Shown piece after piece: positions 16,706-48,401 of a DNA stretch of 64,000 nucleotides (positions within the stretch are counted from its first letter, which is position 1; each line of letters begins with the position of its first letter). A program made the translations under genes and the position numbers. Below the pieces are notes generated by a model. It was not told the DNA's origin, did no database searches, and saw nothing but the letters and a program-made list of their open reading frames with translations. Origin of the DNA: Candidatus Omnitrophota bacterium (GTDB taxonomy: Bacteria; Omnitrophota; Gorgyraeia; VGKH01; JBHPFN01); the NCBI GenBank assembly GCA_042571725.1, contig JBHPFN010000001.1, positions 5,048 to 69,047 on the forward strand. The letters run 5' to 3'.

Positions 16706-17632
16706 ATGCGCAAAGTCAATATTGCGGTAATCGGCACAGGACATCTCGGCTCCAAACATACAAAGGTATATGCAGCACTTCCTAGTAAGGTAAACCTTGT
16801 TGCTGCCTGCGATTGCCAGCCTTCAAAGGCACAGCCTATCTCCCAACAATACAACATCCAGCCTTTTCTCGATTATAAAAAGATTCCTTTAAAAACCCTT
16901 GATGCAGTAAGTATTTGCGTTCCAACAAAACTTCATTATACAGTTGCAAACTACTTTCTCTCTCATAAAATCCACTGCCTTATTGAAAAACCAATTACTA
17001 CGACCCTACAACAGGCAAAGCACCTTACGGCGTTAAGTCAGAAGAAACGTATAACGCTACAGGTAGGCCATGTAGAAAGGTTTAATTCAGCGTTTCAAGC
17101 CATCAAAAACATTGCACGCAATGCCCGTTTTATAGAATGCCACCGTTTAAGCCCTTTCTCCGGAAGATCTACTGATATAGGAGTAGTATTGGATTTGATG
17201 ATTCACGATATAGATATTATCTTAGGGTTGGCTAAGTCAAAACTTAAAAACGTCCAGGCCGTAGGGGTCAATATACTCACTCCTCGAGAAGATATTGCAA
17301 ATGCGCGCATTGCGTTTCAAAACGGTTGTGTATGCAACCTTACCGCGAGCCGAGTTTCACCTGAAGCAATGCGTAAAATTCGGCTGTTCTTAAAAGATAC
17401 CTATATTTCTCTGGATTACGTAACGCAAGAAGCCTTTATGTACAAGAAAAAGAATAATCTCATCGTAAAACACGCCCTTCCCATTGAACGGGAAGAACCT
17501 CTCAAAAAGGAAATCGAGTCATTCATTGACTGCATACTCCGCAGAAAAAAACCCGTTGTCTCCGGCAAAGAGGCGACCGATGCACTTTCGCTCGCATTAA
17601 AAATCCAACGCCTGATATGGAAGAAAAAATAA
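16706..17632 (+). CDS. Gfo/Idh/MocA family oxidoreductase
   Basis: Rossmann N-terminus VNIAVIGTGHLGSKH and the LIEKP motif. Start placed at MRKVNIAV (16706). Adjacent to lpxB, as in many lipid A loci. Confidence 0.7.
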   Translation: MRKVNIAVIGTGHLGSKHTKVYAALPSKVNLVAACDCQPSKAQPISQQYNIQPFLDYKKIPLKTLDAVSICVPTKLHYTVANYFLSHKIHCLIEKPITTTLQQAKHLTALSQKKRITLQVGHVERFNSAFQAIKNIARNARFIECHRLSPFSGRSTDIGVVLDLMIHDIDIILGLAKSKLKNVQAVGVNILTPREDIANARIAFQNGCVCNLTASRVSPEAMRKIRLFLKDTYISLDYVTQEAFMYKKKNNLIVKHALPIEREEPLKKEIESFIDCILRRKKPVVSGKEATDALSLALKIQRLIWKKK

Positions 17633-41556: not shown

Positions 41557-41820
41557 TTAAAACTTCCACTTCTCTACGTCAATACCTAACCTCTTAATCT
41601 TTGCTCGCAAGGTATTGCGATTAATCCCTAGGATTCTGGCGGCTTTTAGCTGATTGCCATCAGTACGCTCAAGCACCCTTTCGATAAGAGGTTTTTCAAC
41701 CATCTCGATAACAAACTTATAGAGCTCATTGCGCTTGCTCTTAATAAAAAAATCATCGAGACCCTTGATACTCTCACCTAAGGTGCATGTCTTATCTTCT
41801 TTTATCAACTCTGCTTGCAT
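41557..41820 (-). CDS. Fis-family small DNA-binding protein
   Basis: 87-aa ORF. Its C-terminal half, LYKFVIEMVEKPLIERVLERTDGNQLKAARILGINRNTLRAKIKRLGI, aligns with the Fis/NtrC-C-terminal HTH_8 pattern. 25 nt upstream of gltB. Confidence 0.65.
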   Translation of the reverse strand: MQAELIKEDKTCTLGESIKGLDDFFIKSKRNELYKFVIEMVEKPLIERVLERTDGNQLKAARILGINRNTLRAKIKRLGIDVEKWKF

Positions 41821-41904: not shown

Positions 41905-43242
41905 TTACAAAATCGAAAGATACTTATCTAATTCGTACTGAGGAACCTGAATCCGGTAATCATCCCACTCTTTTTTCTTCAGCTCAACAAAGCGAGGGAA
42001 AATATGATCCCCAAGCGTCTTTCTCACTAACTGACTCTCTTCTGTTAACGAAATAGCATATCCCAGGCTATCAGGAAGTGTTTGGATACCTTTCTTCTTT
42101 CTTTCAGTATCGCTTAAATGATACAGGTTCTGTTCCATAGGTGCCGGCACTTTGTATCCTTTTTCAATCCCATCTAAGCCTGCTTGCAGCATTGCCGCAA
42201 AGGTAAGATACGGATTACACGCTGGATCACAGGCTCTAAACTCACAGCGCGTTGCCTTTTCTTGTCCTGGATGATACAGCGGCACTCTTACCAAAGCACT
42301 TCTGTTTCTTCGGCTCCAGGCAATATATACAGGTGCTTCGTATCCAGGCACTAATCTTTTGTAAGAATTAGTGGTCTGCGCAAAGATAGAACAGATTTCT
42401 TTTGCGTGCTTTAAGAGCCCTGCGATATATTTGCGTGCGGTGTCTGATAGATAATCTTTTGACTTGGCTTCAAAAAATGCATTCTTGCTTCCTTTAAAAA
42501 GCGACTGATGCGTATGCATCCCTGAGCCGTTCTCGCCGAATATTGGTTTTGGCATAAACGTAGCATACACGCCAAACTTACTGGCGATCTCTTTTACTAC
42601 AACCCGGTAGGTAATAACGCTATCAGCCATTGCAAGGGCATCTGTATAGCGCATATCAACTTCGTGCTGTGAAGGTGCTACCTCATGATGAGAGTATTCA
42701 ATCTTAATCCCCATCTGCTCCAATGCCAAAACGGTTTCTCTTCTCAGATCACTTGCAACATCCAACGTGGTAAGATCAAAATAGCCGCCCTTATCCAAGA
42801 TCTCTGTTCCGTCATCCTTTTTGAAATAGAAGAATTCAAGCTCAGGTCCAAGATAGAAATGATCGAACCCCATCTTCTGTGCGCGTGCAAGTGCGCGTTT
42901 TAACACATAGCGGGGATCTCCTTCATACGGTGTCCTGTCAGGGTTTAATACATCGCAAATCATACGCGCGACTGCCTTTTCTTTTGGCCTCCAGGGTAAG
43001 ATCGCAAACGTATCCGGGTCAGGCATTGCAATCATATCCGACTCTTCAATATCCTGATAGCCGGTAATAGATGAGCCGTCAAACCCCATGCCGTTTTCTA
43101 ACGCACCTTTTAATTCGCTATCGGTGATTGAAAAACTTTTCACCTGTCCGAGTACATCAGTAAACCACAATCGGATAAACTTAACATCATTATCCTTAAC
43201 CTTTTTCAAGATCTGCTGTGTTTTGTTTAGCTTTTTAGCCAT
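41905..43242 (-). CDS. glnA: Glutamine synthetase, type I-alpha-like
   Basis: 445-aa ORF. HHEVAPSQHEVD, NGSGMHTHQSLF, SYKRLVPGYEAP and RNRSALVRVP motifs. No adenylylation-loop extension. Confidence 0.9.
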   Translation of the reverse strand: MAKKLNKTQQILKKVKDNDVKFIRLWFTDVLGQVKSFSITDSELKGALENGMGFDGSSITGYQDIEESDMIAMPDPDTFAILPWRPKEKAVARMICDVLNPDRTPYEGDPRYVLKRALARAQKMGFDHFYLGPELEFFYFKKDDGTEILDKGGYFDLTTLDVASDLRRETVLALEQMGIKIEYSHHEVAPSQHEVDMRYTDALAMADSVITYRVVVKEIASKFGVYATFMPKPIFGENGSGMHTHQSLFKGSKNAFFEAKSKDYLSDTARKYIAGLLKHAKEICSIFAQTTNSYKRLVPGYEAPVYIAWSRRNRSALVRVPLYHPGQEKATRCEFRACDPACNPYLTFAAMLQAGLDGIEKGYKVPAPMEQNLYHLSDTERKKKGIQTLPDSLGYAISLTEESQLVRKTLGDHIFPRFVELKKKEWDDYRIQVPQYELDKYLSIL

Positions 43243-45073: not shown

Positions 45074-45862
45074 TTAAAATACGTAACTTACTTCTACGCC
45101 ACCCCAGATTTCATCATCACCTGCATTAATTGCATCTTCATAGTTTGCGGTATAGTTAAAACTAGGGGAAATACTCATATCTCCGAACGCATATGATGTA
45201 GAAAGCACATAGTCTGTTGCATAGAGTGCTGATGATTTCAGATCAGCAACGCCATCGTTTCCCCAATTCGTAATCCCAACTGAAAGCGCCTGATCTTCCT
45301 GAAAGATTTCCCATTCAGGAAGCGGGATATCAGTTCCAAATCCCCAGGAATAGTACCAGCCTTCATTTGGTCCGTCAGGATCAACCTTAAAGTCATAACC
45401 TGCAAATACGTTCATAGAAACAGCAATAGGTAGTTTTGGAATCTCATTTAAGCTAACCGAAAGCCACGGTTCCTGCACATCTGCGGTCCTGCTCGTATTA
45501 GGAAAATGGAAAAAGGTATATCCTTCGGAAATGGTGACCGCGCCATCCAAGTAGTCTTTTGTAAATGAAAGGGTATAATCAAGCTCCTCAGTATCTACAT
45601 GGCCGCTACCGGTTGCAAATGAACCCCATATATTTAAGGAAACATCTTTGCCGAAGATAAGATCTGGGGCGGTAATATCAATGCTGGGCTGGTGCGCACC
45701 ATCGTTATCCGGAAATAGATCCTGACCGCGCCAGACATACCGTGAAACGTACGTTTCGCTCACCGTAATATTAACCTCTTGCTCGCCAACCTCAAGCGCA
45801 TGTGCCGTAACTGCACAAAACATGATTCCTAAACCTGTTAACACTACTATCAGTTTTCTCAT
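45074..45862 (-). CDS. Putative outer-membrane beta-barrel porin upstream of amtB
   Basis: Start at MRKLIVVL (45862) behind AAAGGAGG. Signal peptide ending AHA. Alternating beta-strand pattern rich in Y/W/G. C-terminal ...VEVSYVF (terminal Phe). Confidence 0.5.
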   Translation of the reverse strand: MRKLIVVLTGLGIMFCAVTAHALEVGEQEVNITVSETYVSRYVWRGQDLFPDNDGAHQPSIDITAPDLIFGKDVSLNIWGSFATGSGHVDTEELDYTLSFTKDYLDGAVTISEGYTFFHFPNTSRTADVQEPWLSVSLNEIPKLPIAVSMNVFAGYDFKVDPDGPNEGWYYSWGFGTDIPLPEWEIFQEDQALSVGITNWGNDGVADLKSSALYATDYVLSTSYAFGDMSISPSFNYTANYEDAINAGDDEIWGGVEVSYVF

Positions 45863-45881
45863 CTTTGCCTCCTTTTTAACC

Positions 45882-45936
45882 TTTATCTCAAAAATAAAAC
45901 AAGCTGTCAAGCCTTTCTCCGCTTCCTTGACAGCTT
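45882..45936 (-). promoter_or_regulatory. 11-bp inverted repeat AAGCTGTCAAG-N14-CTTGACAGCTT overlapping a candidate porin-amtB-glnK promoter
   Basis: The arms are at 45901-11 and 45926-36. On the minus strand, TTGACA (45910-05), N17, TGAGATAAA (extended -10, 45890-82). As RNA the repeat is followed by GTTTTATTTTTGAG. Confidence 0.4.
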
Positions 45937-46067: not shown

Positions 46068-46637
46068 TCAGGATGGTTCGAAGGGTGGTGAGCTTGTCGA
46101 ACCACCCTTTTTTCCAAACTCATCACGCAGAGCATCGCATTTTACTCTGATTCTTTTTTCTATCTTGACAACCATGACGTGCGATGCCCCTATGCGCGCA
46201 CCTATCTCGCGGGTAGTGAGGCCTTCGAGCCTCAACAAAAATATTTCCTGTTCTCTTGCAGTCAGACGTCTTCGCACTTCATCCGCAAGCAGTGCGGTTT
46301 TATCTTCATCTGACTGAGCACTATGTTCGATGGTATCGGAAATCAAAATCTCCTCCAGAGAGCGCTTCTCATCCAAAGTACCCTCAAGGCTAATCGAACG
46401 GGCATCGATCGACTTGAAGGTCTTTCTGATATAATTTCTTAAATAGAAGTAACAATTCTGTAAGATGTAGCTTTCTGTATGGCCCTCAAGTCCTCCCTCT
46501 TCATACAACCTCCACAGATGTGTGATGGATTCCTGGTAAAGATCATCATCGCTAAACATCGTATACTTCCCATCGAGCTTGTGCGCGATCGCTTTTAACC
46601 GCGGGGTATATGTTTTAATCACTTCGTTAAAGTTCAT
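46068..46637 (-). CDS. ECF-type sigma-70 family RNA polymerase sigma factor
   Basis: Region 2 (DDDLYQESITHLWRLYE) and region 4 HTH (LTAREQEIFLLRLEGLTTREIGARIGASHVMV). ATG 46637 behind GGAG is preferred over the TTG at 46649. Confidence 0.7.
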   Translation of the reverse strand: MNFNEVIKTYTPRLKAIAHKLDGKYTMFSDDDLYQESITHLWRLYEEGGLEGHTESYILQNCYFYLRNYIRKTFKSIDARSISLEGTLDEKRSLEEILISDTIEHSAQSDEDKTALLADEVRRRLTAREQEIFLLRLEGLTTREIGARIGASHVMVVKIEKRIRVKCDALRDEFGKKGGSTSSPPFEPS

Positions 46638-46644
46638 TTTCTTC

Positions 46645-46693
46645 TCCAAAAAAATAAACCCTTTTGCAAGCGTATCATCGCTTTCAAAAGGGC
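46645..46693 (-). terminator. Terminator-like hairpin (element B, paralog of element A) abutting the sigma factor RBS
   Basis: On the minus strand, CCCTTTTGAAAGCG-ATGATA-CGCTTGCAAAAGGG (13 bp plus one mismatch) followed by TTTATTTTTTTGGAGAAGAAAATG. Confidence 0.6.
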
Positions 46694-46707
46694 TACTTTG
46701 CCGTCTA

Positions 46708-46738
46708 TAACAAAAATGCCCTGCATCTCTTGCAGGGC
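46708..46738 (-). terminator. First terminator-like hairpin in the sigma factor leader
   Basis: On the minus strand, GCCCTGCA-AGAGA-TGCAGGGC followed by ATTTTTGTTAT. It lies downstream of the 46772-46799 promoter. Confidence 0.55.
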
Positions 46739-46771
46739 TACATTGCCTCTACCAACTTCATTGTCACCTTA

Positions 46772-46799
46772 AGTATACCCTGAATCCCGTTATTGTCAA
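46772..46799 (-). promoter_or_regulatory. sigma70-type promoter facing the sigma factor gene (TTGACA-N16-TATACT)
   Basis: On the minus strand, TTGACA (46799-46794) and TATACT (46777-46772). Back to back with the plus-strand promoter at 46824. Confidence 0.55.
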
Positions 46800-46823
46800 G
46801 AAAAAATTAAAAAAAGTTTCTAC

Positions 46824-46851
46824 TTGACAAATGTAAAGTTAGTGTTATACT
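46824..46851 (+). promoter_or_regulatory. sigma70-type promoter of the HTH-glutamine synthetase gene (TTGACA-N16-TATACT)
   Basis: TTGACA 46824-29 and TATACT 46846-51. AGGAGG RBS at 46865-70 and ATG at 46875. Confidence 0.6.
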
Positions 46852-46865
46852 TGTCAATTGACAAG
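46850..46865. promoter_or_regulatory. Perfect 16-bp palindrome CTTGTCAATTGACAAG over the -10/TSS region (candidate operator)
   Basis: Read directly from the sequence. It overlaps the last two bases of the -10 box and runs up to the RBS. Confidence 0.45.
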
Positions 46866-46874
46866 GAGGAAACT

Positions 46875-48401
46875 ATGGAAAAAGAGTATTTAAGCCCTAC
46901 TGAGGCAGCAAAGCTTTTAGGAATCTCCAGGCAGGCGGTAAACGATAAGATTAAACACGGCACACTCCCTGCAGAACGCGCTGGACACCAATACATCATC
47001 CCCAAGGCGGCTCTATTGCCTAAGCGCAGTTCTGCAAAGGCACGGCATACAACTTCAACGAAGCTCTCTTCTTCTAAAAAGCGAGCAGCCCGCGATATCC
47101 TTTCAAAGGTTGAGAAAAACAACATAAAGACAATTCAACTCTGGTTTGTGGATATTTTAGGCATATTAAAGTGTGTTTCGATTACCAAGGGAGAACTCAA
47201 AGAAGCGCTTGAGCACGGCAAAGGCTTTGATGGTTCGTCAGTCACCGGCTTTGCCGAGGCTGAGGAAAGTGATATTATTGCCCAGCCAGACCCGTCCACA
47301 TTCAAGATCCTTCCCTGGACAAAAAAGGACGATCCGATTGCGCGCATATTCTGCGATATCCTCAATCCTAATCGAAGCGCCTACGCCGGAGACCCACGCT
47401 ATGCATTAAAGCGTGCAATGGCACGTGCCAACAAATTAGGGCTAAACTTCTTTGTGGGTGCGGAGGTTGAGTATTTTTATTTTAAGTCTGCGCATAAGCC
47501 GGAGATCATTGACGAAGGCTCCTATTTTGAGCTTATTCCCAATGACCTGGCAAATACGCTGCGCAATAAAACCATCCGCGCTCTTGAAGAAATGGGCGTC
47601 GAAATGGAGGCAAGCCATCACGAAGTGGCCCCTAGTCAGCACGAGGTTGACCCAAAGTATTCTGATGCGCTCTCCGCAGCAGACAATGTGATCACCTGTA
47701 AATATGTAATTAAGGAAATCGCCCAACAGGCAGGTGTCTATGCTACCTTTATGCCCAAGCCGATGTTCGGTGTTAATGGCTCCGGTATGCACGTACACCA
47801 GTCTTTATTTAAGGGTAGTAAAAATGTCTTTTTTGACAAAAAAGACAAGCATCATTTATCTCCCATTGCCCACCGCTTCATTGCAGGACAGCTCAAGCAT
47901 GCGCGGGAGATCTGTTCTCTTACCGCACAGTGGGTAAACTCCTACAAGCGCCTGGTATCAGGCTATGAGGCACCGGTGTATGCCTCGTGGGCACAGAGGA
48001 ACCGCACTGCTCTGTTGCGTGTTCCGGTGTACCGACTTGGCAATGAAAAGGCTACCCGTGTCGAACTTAGATGTCCGGATCCTGCGTGCAATCCGTATCT
48101 GGCATTTGCCGTAATGTTAGCAGCCGGATTAGAAGGCATTGAGAAGAAATACAAAATCCCCCCTCCGGTAGAGCCTAATATCTATCATATGGCTATGGAG
48201 GAGCGAGAACGTAGAGGTCTTACCTCTCTTCCAGGAAATCTTTTTGAGGCGATTTTAGAAACAGAGAAAAGCAGCTTTGTGAAGGAAGCCTTGGGAGATC
48301 ATATCTTTGATAGATTCCTTTTTAACAAAAAGAAGGAATGGGAGGATTACCGCATTCAGATCACCCAGCACGAGATAAAAAAGTATCTACCACTACTCTA
48401 A
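46875..48401 (+). CDS. Glutamine synthetase (type I-alpha-like) with N-terminal excisionase/MerR-superfamily HTH domain
   Basis: 508 aa from ATG 46875. Residues 1-45, EYLSPTEAAKLLGISRQAVNDKIKHGTLPAERAGHQYIIPKAAL, read as an HTH_17-type domain. A Ser/Lys-rich linker follows. The complete GS domain retains HHEVAPSQHEVD, NGSGMHVHQSLF, SYKRLVSGYEAP and RNRTALLRVP. One continuous frame, with no internal start codon at the GS boundary. Confidence 0.85.
   Translation: MEKEYLSPTEAAKLLGISRQAVNDKIKHGTLPAERAGHQYIIPKAALLPKRSSAKARHTTSTKLSSSKKRAARDILSKVEKNNIKTIQLWFVDILGILKCVSITKGELKEALEHGKGFDGSSVTGFAEAEESDIIAQPDPSTFKILPWTKKDDPIARIFCDILNPNRSAYAGDPRYALKRAMARANKLGLNFFVGAEVEYFYFKSAHKPEIIDEGSYFELIPNDLANTLRNKTIRALEEMGVEMEASHHEVAPSQHEVDPKYSDALSAADNVITCKYVIKEIAQQAGVYATFMPKPMFGVNGSGMHVHQSLFKGSKNVFFDKKDKHHLSPIAHRFIAGQLKHAREICSLTAQWVNSYKRLVSGYEAPVYASWAQRNRTALLRVPVYRLGNEKATRVELRCPDPACNPYLAFAVMLAAGLEGIEKKYKIPPPVEPNIYHMAMEERERRGLTSLPGNLFEAILETEKSSFVKEALGDHIFDRFLFNKKKEWEDYRIQITQHEIKKYLPLL

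Follow-up and report, generated by a model that had tools for sequence, protein, structure and literature searches.

Glutamine synthetase (GS) is among the most studied regulated enzymes, and wherever a link from it to transcription is known, a separate partner is involved (GlnR, TnrA and PII-dependent systems). In Bacillus subtilis the GS oligomer is the platform that makes GlnR or TnrA competent, and the promoter of the GS gene is itself targeted (PMC9249791; PMC11800386). Enzyme and regulator are separate proteins there, which meet via the C-terminal tail of the regulator and only when GS is feedback-inhibited by glutamine. Metabolic enzymes with a built-in N-terminal DNA-binding domain and an operator at their own or their pathway's promoter are represented by BirA, PutA, NadR and the archaeal RbkR, and in BirA ligand-induced dimerisation drives DNA binding. 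Here we describe a gene, HTH-GS, that lies in a 64,000-nucleotide (nt) stretch of a Candidatus Omnitrophota genome (contig JBHPFN010000001.1, positions 5,048 to 69,047; hereafter the window) and joins a helix-turn-helix (HTH) domain to the N-terminus of a complete GS. Like the BirA group it combines enzyme and DNA-binding domain in one conserved polypeptide, although none of those enzymes is a glutamine synthetase or a 12-mer; like the B. subtilis pairs it couples a GSI-alpha enzyme to a MerR-like winged helix with its own promoter as the apparent target, but the coupling is covalent and N-terminal. With slightly more confidence than doubt, we propose that HTH-GS is a self-repressing bifunctional "trigger enzyme", an oligomer-driven autorepressor. 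No description of a natural HTH-GS fusion was found in the searchable literature, and term searches within a 2022 structural study of GS-GlnR and a 2025 review of GS regulation returned none, in line with an initial reading of the DNA alone (the sequence-only reading), to which no such fusion was known either.

The gene is one unbroken frame of 508 amino acids (aa) plus stop codon, and an identical protein (P0001), assigned to Candidatus Omnitrophota, is present in NCBI. Its parts, and the canonical GS gene of the window used for comparison, are the following.

46875..48401, + strand: HTH-GS fusion gene (open reading frame (ORF) reading plus Pfam and NCBIfam domain matches)
46887..47015, + strand: HTH_17/excisionase-type winged helix, residues 5-47 (Pfam, NCBIfam, AlphaFold2 (AF2) and Foldseek)
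47016..47069, + strand: disordered low-complexity Lys/Ser-rich linker, residues 48-65 (AF2 predicted local distance difference test (pLDDT) about 30 over residues 49-64)
47070..47117, + strand: GS N-terminal helix alpha1, linker attachment point, residues 66-81 (AF2 helix)
47121..47369, + strand: Gln-synt_N beta-grasp domain, residues 83-165, holding T86, Q88, C100, T149 and E128
47388..48386, + strand: Gln-synt_C catalytic domain, residues 172-504 (Pfam, 419 bits)
41905..43242, - strand: canonical unfused glnA, 445 aa, comparator outside the unit

The N-terminal domain matched HTH_17 (PF12728, residues 5-47) with 34.3 bits against a cutoff of 27 and the excisionase model TIGR01764 with 36.5 bits against 28.8. 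The remainder matched Gln-synt_N (PF03951, residues 83-165) with 91.6 bits, Gln-synt_C (PF00120, residues 172-504) with the score given above, and the GlnA equivalog TIGR00653 with 505 bits against a cutoff of 429. These matches agree with the sequence-only reading, which had seen in a single frame an N-terminal HTH, a linker and a GS I-alpha domain with intact catalytic motifs. The GS part is 61% identical to the canonical glnA, in an alignment that begins at about residue 64. That reading had further noted the lack of a start codon at the GS boundary, and this was borne out: no ATG is present near the junction of HTH and GS, in-frame alternative starts between residues 2 and 110 are limited to TTG (residue 48) and GTG (residue 92), and the 19 fused loci compared share no conserved internal start. 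An internal start yielding an HTH-less GS was therefore rejected as a feature of the family. In the window, the TTG at residue 48 is preceded by the weak Shine-Dalgarno-like sequence AAGGCGG.

Searching with the full-length protein recovered at least 120 clusters with 69-100% identity, all of which carry the HTH sequence; query coverage was at least 97% in all 120 listed clusters and 100% in 117 of them. The clusters were drawn from NCBI, JGI, ENA and Logan assemblies with contigs of up to 1.26 Mb, and their named sources are always Candidatus Omnitrophota or Omnitrophica. The same fusion was found at 18 independent genomic loci, and among contigs restricted to one genome per species it was complete in 13 of the best 80 loci. 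A few of these loci are labelled as Planctomycetia or Methanosarcinales metagenome-assembled genomes (MAGs), which is probably binning or labelling noise. The fusion is thus as good as certain. The recurrence of the architecture across these sources refutes an artefact of sequencing or assembly, for example two genes joined by a frameshift, and we regard its chance as negligible. A standalone copy of the fused HTH, as expected for a split ancestral state, was looked for beside the unfused GS genes and not found, which also weighs against an artefact. The sequence-only reading had named two separate genes in related genomes as the sign of a frameshift, and the related genomes keep the fusion. 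In the databases these proteins are named only "glutamine synthetase (beta-grasp domain-containing protein)".

By neighbour-joining of GS domains, the 13 fused genes fall together as a single clade within a distinct GS branch, and their nearest neighbours on that branch are unfused (L013, from Ratteibacteria, L014, L015 and L016). The canonical glnA of the window lies on a separate branch together with other Omnitrophota glnA genes. No second, independent fusion of HTH and GS was present in the best 150 matches of a combined HTH and beta-grasp profile against 1.84 billion representatives, which is weak evidence of absence outside the clade because, at 50% clustering, the fused clade itself is there only as N-terminal fragments. 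A word-indexed homolog search with the N-terminal 87 aa alone gave no matches, and the full-length query was required. The simplest history suggested by these sequences would be a single fusion event followed by vertical inheritance.

The DNA-binding half is predicted to form a winged helix with the topology beta-alpha-alpha-beta-beta (strand 5-6, helices 8-15 and 19-28, strands 34-36 and 39-43), as modelled by AF2 from the N-terminal 56 residues (pLDDT 79; 76-90 in the HTH region, disorder thereafter). Its recognition-helix motif S18-R19-Q20-A21-V22 (SRQAV) is invariant or nearly so. In Foldseek comparisons with the PDB, DNA-bound BldC (6ama) ranked first with a template modelling (TM) score of 0.74 and a root-mean-square deviation (rmsd) of 1.1 A, and the other top matches included Pukovnik Xis (4j2n, TM 0.71), RacA, the MerR-family protein HiNmlR and the excisionase RdfS, the best matches overall spanning TM 0.69-0.75 and rmsd about 1-1.6 A. 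HiNmlR was the only MerR-family fold match (rank 12, TM 0.69), and the Xis protein of mycobacteriophage Pukovnik was the only PDB sequence match below E = 0.01 (E = 1.3e-3). The HTH domains of BirA and RbkR were among the weak sequence and fold matches. Together, the profile and fold matches uphold the MerR-like/excisionase type that the sequence-only reading had assigned to the HTH. Chains of TnrA or GlnR were absent from the PDB sequence matches and from the top 50 Foldseek matches, and neither Pfam MerR nor MerR_1 matched HTH-GS at E <= 0.01. Unlike in TnrA and GlnR, the HTH is BldC/Xis-like by profile and fold and stands at the N-terminus, where a variable linker leads straight into helix alpha1, with no free C-terminal tail.

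In the AF2 model the HTH is followed by the disordered linker, and the coiled-coil dimerisation helix of MerR proteins is absent. BldC is likewise described as a MerR-like protein that has neither the coiled coil for dimerisation nor an effector domain (PMC5859096), and the fused HTH has no such modules of its own. Outside the GS fusions, its closest relatives are proteins of 4 to 8 tandem HTH copies, which suggests that the domain requires multimerisation by external means. Among these proteins, P0124, P0125, P0129, P0135 and P0142 have HTH_17 repeated in tandem, either 4 times in about 240 aa or 7-8 times in 563 aa.

The region upstream of the gene contains a strong predicted promoter and two overlapping or adjoining palindromes, as follows.

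46824..46851, + strand: sigma-70-type promoter, TTGACA, 16-nt spacer and TG-extended TATACT, 11/12 consensus matches
46823..46838, no strand: operator-like palindrome O1, CTTGACAAATGTAAAG, spanning the -35 hexamer and reaching 9 bp into the spacer (about -35..-20)
46850..46865, no strand: operator-like palindrome O2, CTTGTCAATTGACAAG, a perfect 16-bp palindrome from the -10 end across the predicted +1 (about -8..+8)
46863..46869, + strand: ribosome-binding site AAGGAGG, 5 nt ahead of the ATG, read off the sequence

The same promoter layout is seen in related fused loci. O1 scored 23.9 bits with the position weight matrix of the operator, against a maximum of 15.7 in shuffled sequences, and O2, which abuts the ribosome-binding site, scored 20.1 bits. 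The 16-bp operator consensus is CTTKWCA-N2-TGWMAAG and usually occurs in two copies per fused-gene promoter; in most fused loci O1 is followed 21-32 bp downstream by the second palindrome. Within an alignment of 14 fused-gene promoters, taken from genomes in which the proteins are only 70-82% identical, ACTTGACA..GT.AA is invariant (14/14). Each of the 18 fused loci for which 150 nt or more of upstream sequence was available has the palindrome, and the four nearest unfused GS loci do not. Exact matches to the core TTKWCA-N2-TGWMAA numbered 21 in 2,386 nt upstream of fused genes versus 1 in 980,088 nt elsewhere, the lone background match being a low-complexity run in a spirochaete locus. Five held-out loci that had not been used for the pattern (L201, L202, L205, L206 and L208) have two sites each, at -24 to -105. 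The role of DNA-binding regulator that the sequence-only reading gave to the HTH is therefore likely, being backed by a conserved palindrome pair on the gene's own core promoter.

The consensus of the TnrA/GlnR box is TGTNA-N7-TNACA. In the HTH-GS operator the half-sites are oppositely oriented to this box and are separated by a 2-bp spacer. HTH-GS is accordingly placed outside the TnrA/GlnR family by profile and fold, by the lack of a C-terminal tail and by operator layout alike. BldC and Xis, in turn, multimerise head-to-tail on direct repeats, whereas the HTH-GS sites are inverted repeats and multimerisation would be expected from the GS part. Spacers of MerR-activated promoters are typically 19-20 nt long, and activation of the MerR type via spacer distortion was rejected for HTH-GS because its promoter spacer has 16 nt. 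A search for sigma-54 promoters gave matches at chance level only.

Three features, namely the strict pairing of HTH with palindrome, a recognition helix that hardly varies and the position of the sites on the core promoter, lead us to infer that this operator is bound by the HTH and that binding would repress by occlusion. Oligomerisation would drive the binding. In the mechanism that we propose, a BldC/Xis-type winged helix, MerR-like and without dimerisation helix, would be tethered to each GS subunit by a disordered linker of ~20 aa, so that the assembled dodecamer could present as many as 12 DNA-binding heads, with six on each face. The heads would recognise the palindrome, present in one or two copies at their own promoter; any two heads could straddle one palindrome, in which the half-site centres are 9 bp apart, and with four heads O1 and O2 could be filled at once, so that intrinsically weak monomeric domains would bind with high avidity. 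The GS oligomer would in this way provide the multivalency that a lone HTH_17 domain is without. Bound protein would occlude RNA polymerase at the -35 region and spacer and at the -10 region and start site, and accumulating protein would thereby shut its own strong promoter.

That the GS scaffold could carry such heads is suggested by engineered fusions of maltose-binding protein (MBP) to GS, which serve as a cryo-EM scaffold: the GS N-terminus is sterically open and lies away from the oligomer interfaces, N-terminal fusions still form D6 dodecamers, and the passenger domain is displayed on the dodecamer surface (PMC4971460). By analogy, the natural fusion should display up to twelve HTH heads. 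Both have a folded domain on the GS N-terminus, but the MBP fusions are artificial, carry another passenger and have no regulatory role. The linker itself is shorter than the ~40 aa of the sequence-only reading: its true length is about 17 aa in the window protein (residues 48-64), and the remainder is the N-terminal helix of GS, which aligns with the N-terminus of the canonical glnA product. Across 120 homologs both its sequence and its length vary (5-24 aa, median 20); Lys, Ser, Ala, Glu and Thr are abundant in it, and its net charge is positive in two thirds of the sequences. The AF2 model of full-length HTH-GS has a pLDDT of 72.6 and likewise shows a winged helix with disorder after it.

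Several points weigh against autorepression. The operator pattern was derived from the same promoters in which it was then counted, which makes the count inside the fused-gene promoters circular in part; this does not apply to the held-out loci or to the near-zero background. Generic promoters of the window share the left half of O1, CTTGACAA, and only this half, as a -35 context. Conservation of O1 could hence be explained in part by promoter strength alone, and the informative conservation is that of the right half-site and of O2. O2 is degenerate or absent in a few loci, L008, L012 and L017. Another, unseen regulator could own the palindrome, and targets elsewhere may exist, given that coverage of fusion-bearing genomes amounted to only about 0.35 Mb.

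Some of these points would also suit a different role, in which the HTH tethers GS to DNA or to the nucleoid, or mediates protein contacts, and the palindrome is either the site of another factor or plain promoter sequence. The generic left half of O1 fits such a role, as does the basic linker, which would suit non-specific DNA contact, and relatives of the HTH such as RacA are chromosome-anchoring proteins and not classical regulators. The distribution of the palindrome over fused and unfused loci described above argues against it, however, and so do the right half TGTAAAG and the second site, since the positions they take in the spacer and at +1 are not normally conserved in promoters; the near-invariant recognition helix likewise argues for a specific target. 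We consider the tether improbable.

Autorepression, our preferred explanation, concerns a single promoter, and the genomic surroundings bear on whether HTH-GS controls further genes. In the window, the fused gene is divergent from a run comprising a sigma-like factor, a putative porin, amt, glnB, glnA, HTH_8 and gltB. Comparison of synteny by BLAST with the window proteins had indicated no conserved neighbourhood, which was misleading, because at the level of Pfam domains glutamine-metabolism neighbours are recurrent. These are pyrG-gltD-gltB-HTH_8-GS in L201; genes for GDH and IDH, GOGAT-like genes, carB and an amidotransferase gene in L202; a guaA/nadE-like gene, carB, a gene with a Glu_synthase domain and GDH in L205; and a divergent GAF-ANTAR regulator, pyrG, purLQS and carAB in L206. 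In several genomes HTH-GS thus stands beside genes of glutamine-consuming amidotransferases (pyrG, carAB, purLQS), and in a more distant fused subclade the gene lies in an lpx cluster.

Such surroundings favour the one-component nitrogen sensor-regulator of the sequence-only reading, taken here to sense glutamine, ATP or 2-oxoglutarate (2-OG) through GS and to control a nitrogen regulon (glnA, amtB, gltB and others) through the HTH, as a covalent version of GS-GlnR or GS-TnrA. In Bacillus, GS does control MerR-type regulators (PMC9249791), and the closest solved GS, GlnA1 of Methanosarcina mazei, is regulated via its oligomeric state. The sites, however, do not follow the nitrogen genes. The proposed control of glnA, amtB and gltB was not supported, since these genes adjoin HTH-GS in the window and yet no operator-like site is present upstream of glnA, amt, glnB or gltB. 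Nor was the palindrome found at the neighbouring pyrG, carAB, purLQS, gdh, icd and GOGAT genes of the other fused loci. The absence of sites at neighbours in about 0.35 Mb of fusion-bearing genomes supports autoregulation only. A metagenome-wide operator scan returned 120 loci, one of which contained the fusion; chance matches in unrelated organisms dominated the result, which is uninformative on the regulon. The operator architecture unlike that of the TnrA/GlnR box speaks against a sensor of this kind as well, and the effector sites of the GS half, considered below, do so too, so that we judge it unlikely.

The GS half looks fully functional as an enzyme. D119, S122, E197, E199, Y217, E250, E257, H306, H308, R359, E365, R377, R382, E397 and R399 are invariant in 28 sequences, and N301 and G302 are invariant in the fused clade too; we take these to be classical GS residues, and those of the catalytic, metal and ammonium sites and of the Glu-flap are all invariant across 27 fused sequences. 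By alignment, D57 and R319 of M. mazei GlnA1 map to D119 and R377 of HTH-GS. Catalytic competence is thus suggested by residue conservation. The I-alpha type named in the sequence-only reading was corroborated by far better scores to GSI-alpha structures (M. mazei, B. subtilis and others, 430-483 bits) than to GSI-beta structures of Salmonella/E. coli (about 266 bits); the closest solved structure was M. mazei GlnA1 with 483 bits, and B. subtilis GS scored about 432 bits.

M. mazei GlnA1 (PDB 8tfb, 8ufj, 8s59) belongs to the same GSI-alpha class, and its activity is governed by dodecamer assembly. It is activated by 2-OG, which glues the subunits into the active dodecamer and is bound by F24, R26, S38, R87, R172', R173' and S189' (PMC11957540). 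The corresponding positions of the fused clade are T86, Q88, C100, T149 (or E), R230, N231 and S/T247, and the replacement residues are themselves nearly invariant. GlnA1, which has no HTH, therefore differs in F24, R26, S38, R87 and R173, replaced by T, Q, C, T/E and N, and the fused clade does not have a 2-OG pocket of the M. mazei or Methanothermococcus thermolithotrophicus type. In the unfused sisters L013-L016, the residues that match Q88 and C100 are already Q and C, which implies that remodelling of the pocket predates the fusion. In B. subtilis GS inhibited by glutamine feedback, Arg62 locks the Glu-flap, and its substitution abolishes glutamine inhibition (PMC10799026). At this position (Arg66 in M. 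mazei), in the Asp50' loop, E128 is found in 27/27 fused sequences, so that the glutamine-feedback Arg of the B. subtilis type is not present among them, a further difference from the TnrA/GlnR systems; the canonical paralog has D. With the 2-OG pocket and the feedback Arg gone, neither known direct effector mechanism of GSI-alpha enzymes would be expected in the fused GS. Glutamine sensing by the GS part, as the sequence-only reading supposed, is not supported, the feedback Arg being an invariant Glu, and neither is sensing of 2-OG, with four of the seven ligands replaced and a fifth, S189, being Ser or Thr.

The canonical paralog retains all seven 2-OG ligand residues; the residues retained at its 2-OG site read F, R, S, R, D170, R, R, S. 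With this site and with Asp in place of the feedback Arg, it is predicted to be an archaeal-style, 2-OG-activated and glutamine-insensitive GS in a bacterium. One genome would thus hold two GS paralogs with divided labour, one retaining the 2-OG switch and the other without effector motifs and with a DNA-binding head.

Loss of both known direct control motifs of GSI-alpha enzymes leads one to expect some other control, and this could be exerted in the reverse direction, so that enzyme activity or assembly, and not transcription, would be controlled by binding to DNA or by an HTH docked on the GS body. GlnK1 and 2-OG alter the oligomeric state of M. mazei GS, and GlnR and TnrA alter that of the B. 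subtilis enzyme. The AF2 model, however, read without its predicted aligned error, shows a disordered linker and gives no sign of a docked HTH, and such control would leave the operator at the gene's own promoter unexplained, for which reasons we find it very unlikely.

Autorepression may also be extended. That assembly state or catalytic conformation gates DNA binding is an attractive idea by analogy with the oligomer-based control of the M. mazei and B. subtilis enzymes, although the known effector motifs are gone. In its fullest form, the GS dodecamer would itself be the transcription factor, with heads that become operator-competent only on assembly or in a particular conformation of the catalytic cycle; nitrogen or energy status would be read by the enzyme and written onto DNA without a partner protein; the targets would extend beyond its own promoter and make HTH-GS a main nitrogen regulator in Omnitrophota; and the remodelled, conserved pocket (T86, Q88, C100, T149, N231) would bind a new effector. 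That all of this holds together has, in our estimate, a rather small chance. If autorepression is true, HTH-GS would be the simplest possible form of an enzyme that controls its own gene, and a natural experiment in which a 12-mer scaffold replaces the dimerisation domain of a transcription factor. The division of labour between the two paralogs and the placement of HTH-GS beside amidotransferase genes also provide an initial entry point to how nitrogen is controlled in the uncultured Omnitrophota.

Further observations were made on the genes around HTH-GS. The divergent sigma-70-like gene of the window (46068-46649, -) has a minus-strand promoter with 11/12 consensus matches at 46799-46772. 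Its leader (46650-46800) contains a terminator-like hairpin at 46738-46718 and the direct repeat AGGGCTAC(T/A)TTGCC at 46689 and 46734, and may be an attenuator or leader element; an Rfam search over 36-50 kb of the window gave no matches. Just upstream of amt, a 278-aa ORF (45074-45910, -) with a hydrophobic, signal-peptide-like N-terminus had no Pfam match and may encode a new kind of outer-membrane channel in one transcript with amt-glnB.

The order glnA-HTH_8-gltB is common to the window and L201. The HTH_8 protein is of Fis type (window, 41557-41820, -, 87 aa; L201, 17171-17404, -, 77 aa) and resembles a free-standing NtrC-type DNA-binding domain. On the 1.26-Mb contig of L201, the second GS, by HTH_8-gltB, is called with 503 aa versus 445 aa for the canonical glnA of the window; 17474-17533 (-) is the part of it within the locus covered, and its N-terminus lies outside.

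ANTAR domains are RNA-binding antiterminators. Separate GAF-ANTAR genes lie beside or near HTH-GS in L206 (9162-9866, -) and L202 (15216-15917, -). In L021, from a Nitrospira-like MAG, a GAF and ANTAR ORF (26-2119, +) runs in frame into glnA with no stop, giving 698 aa. The GS boundary in L021 reads GGAGG-N7-ATG, and the sister contig L024 (1-1422) has an upstream stop and a short flank unlike that of L021, so that this GAF-ANTAR-GS could be a real fusion or an error.

A DUF1846 protein of about 505 aa recurs near HTH-GS, in L202 (1167-2684), L205 (3133-4650) and L208 (9066-10589). Its gene adjoins that of the large subunit of carbamoyl-phosphate synthase in L202 and L205 and an NAD-synthase-like gene in L208, and a link of this uncharacterised family to glutamine metabolism is possible.

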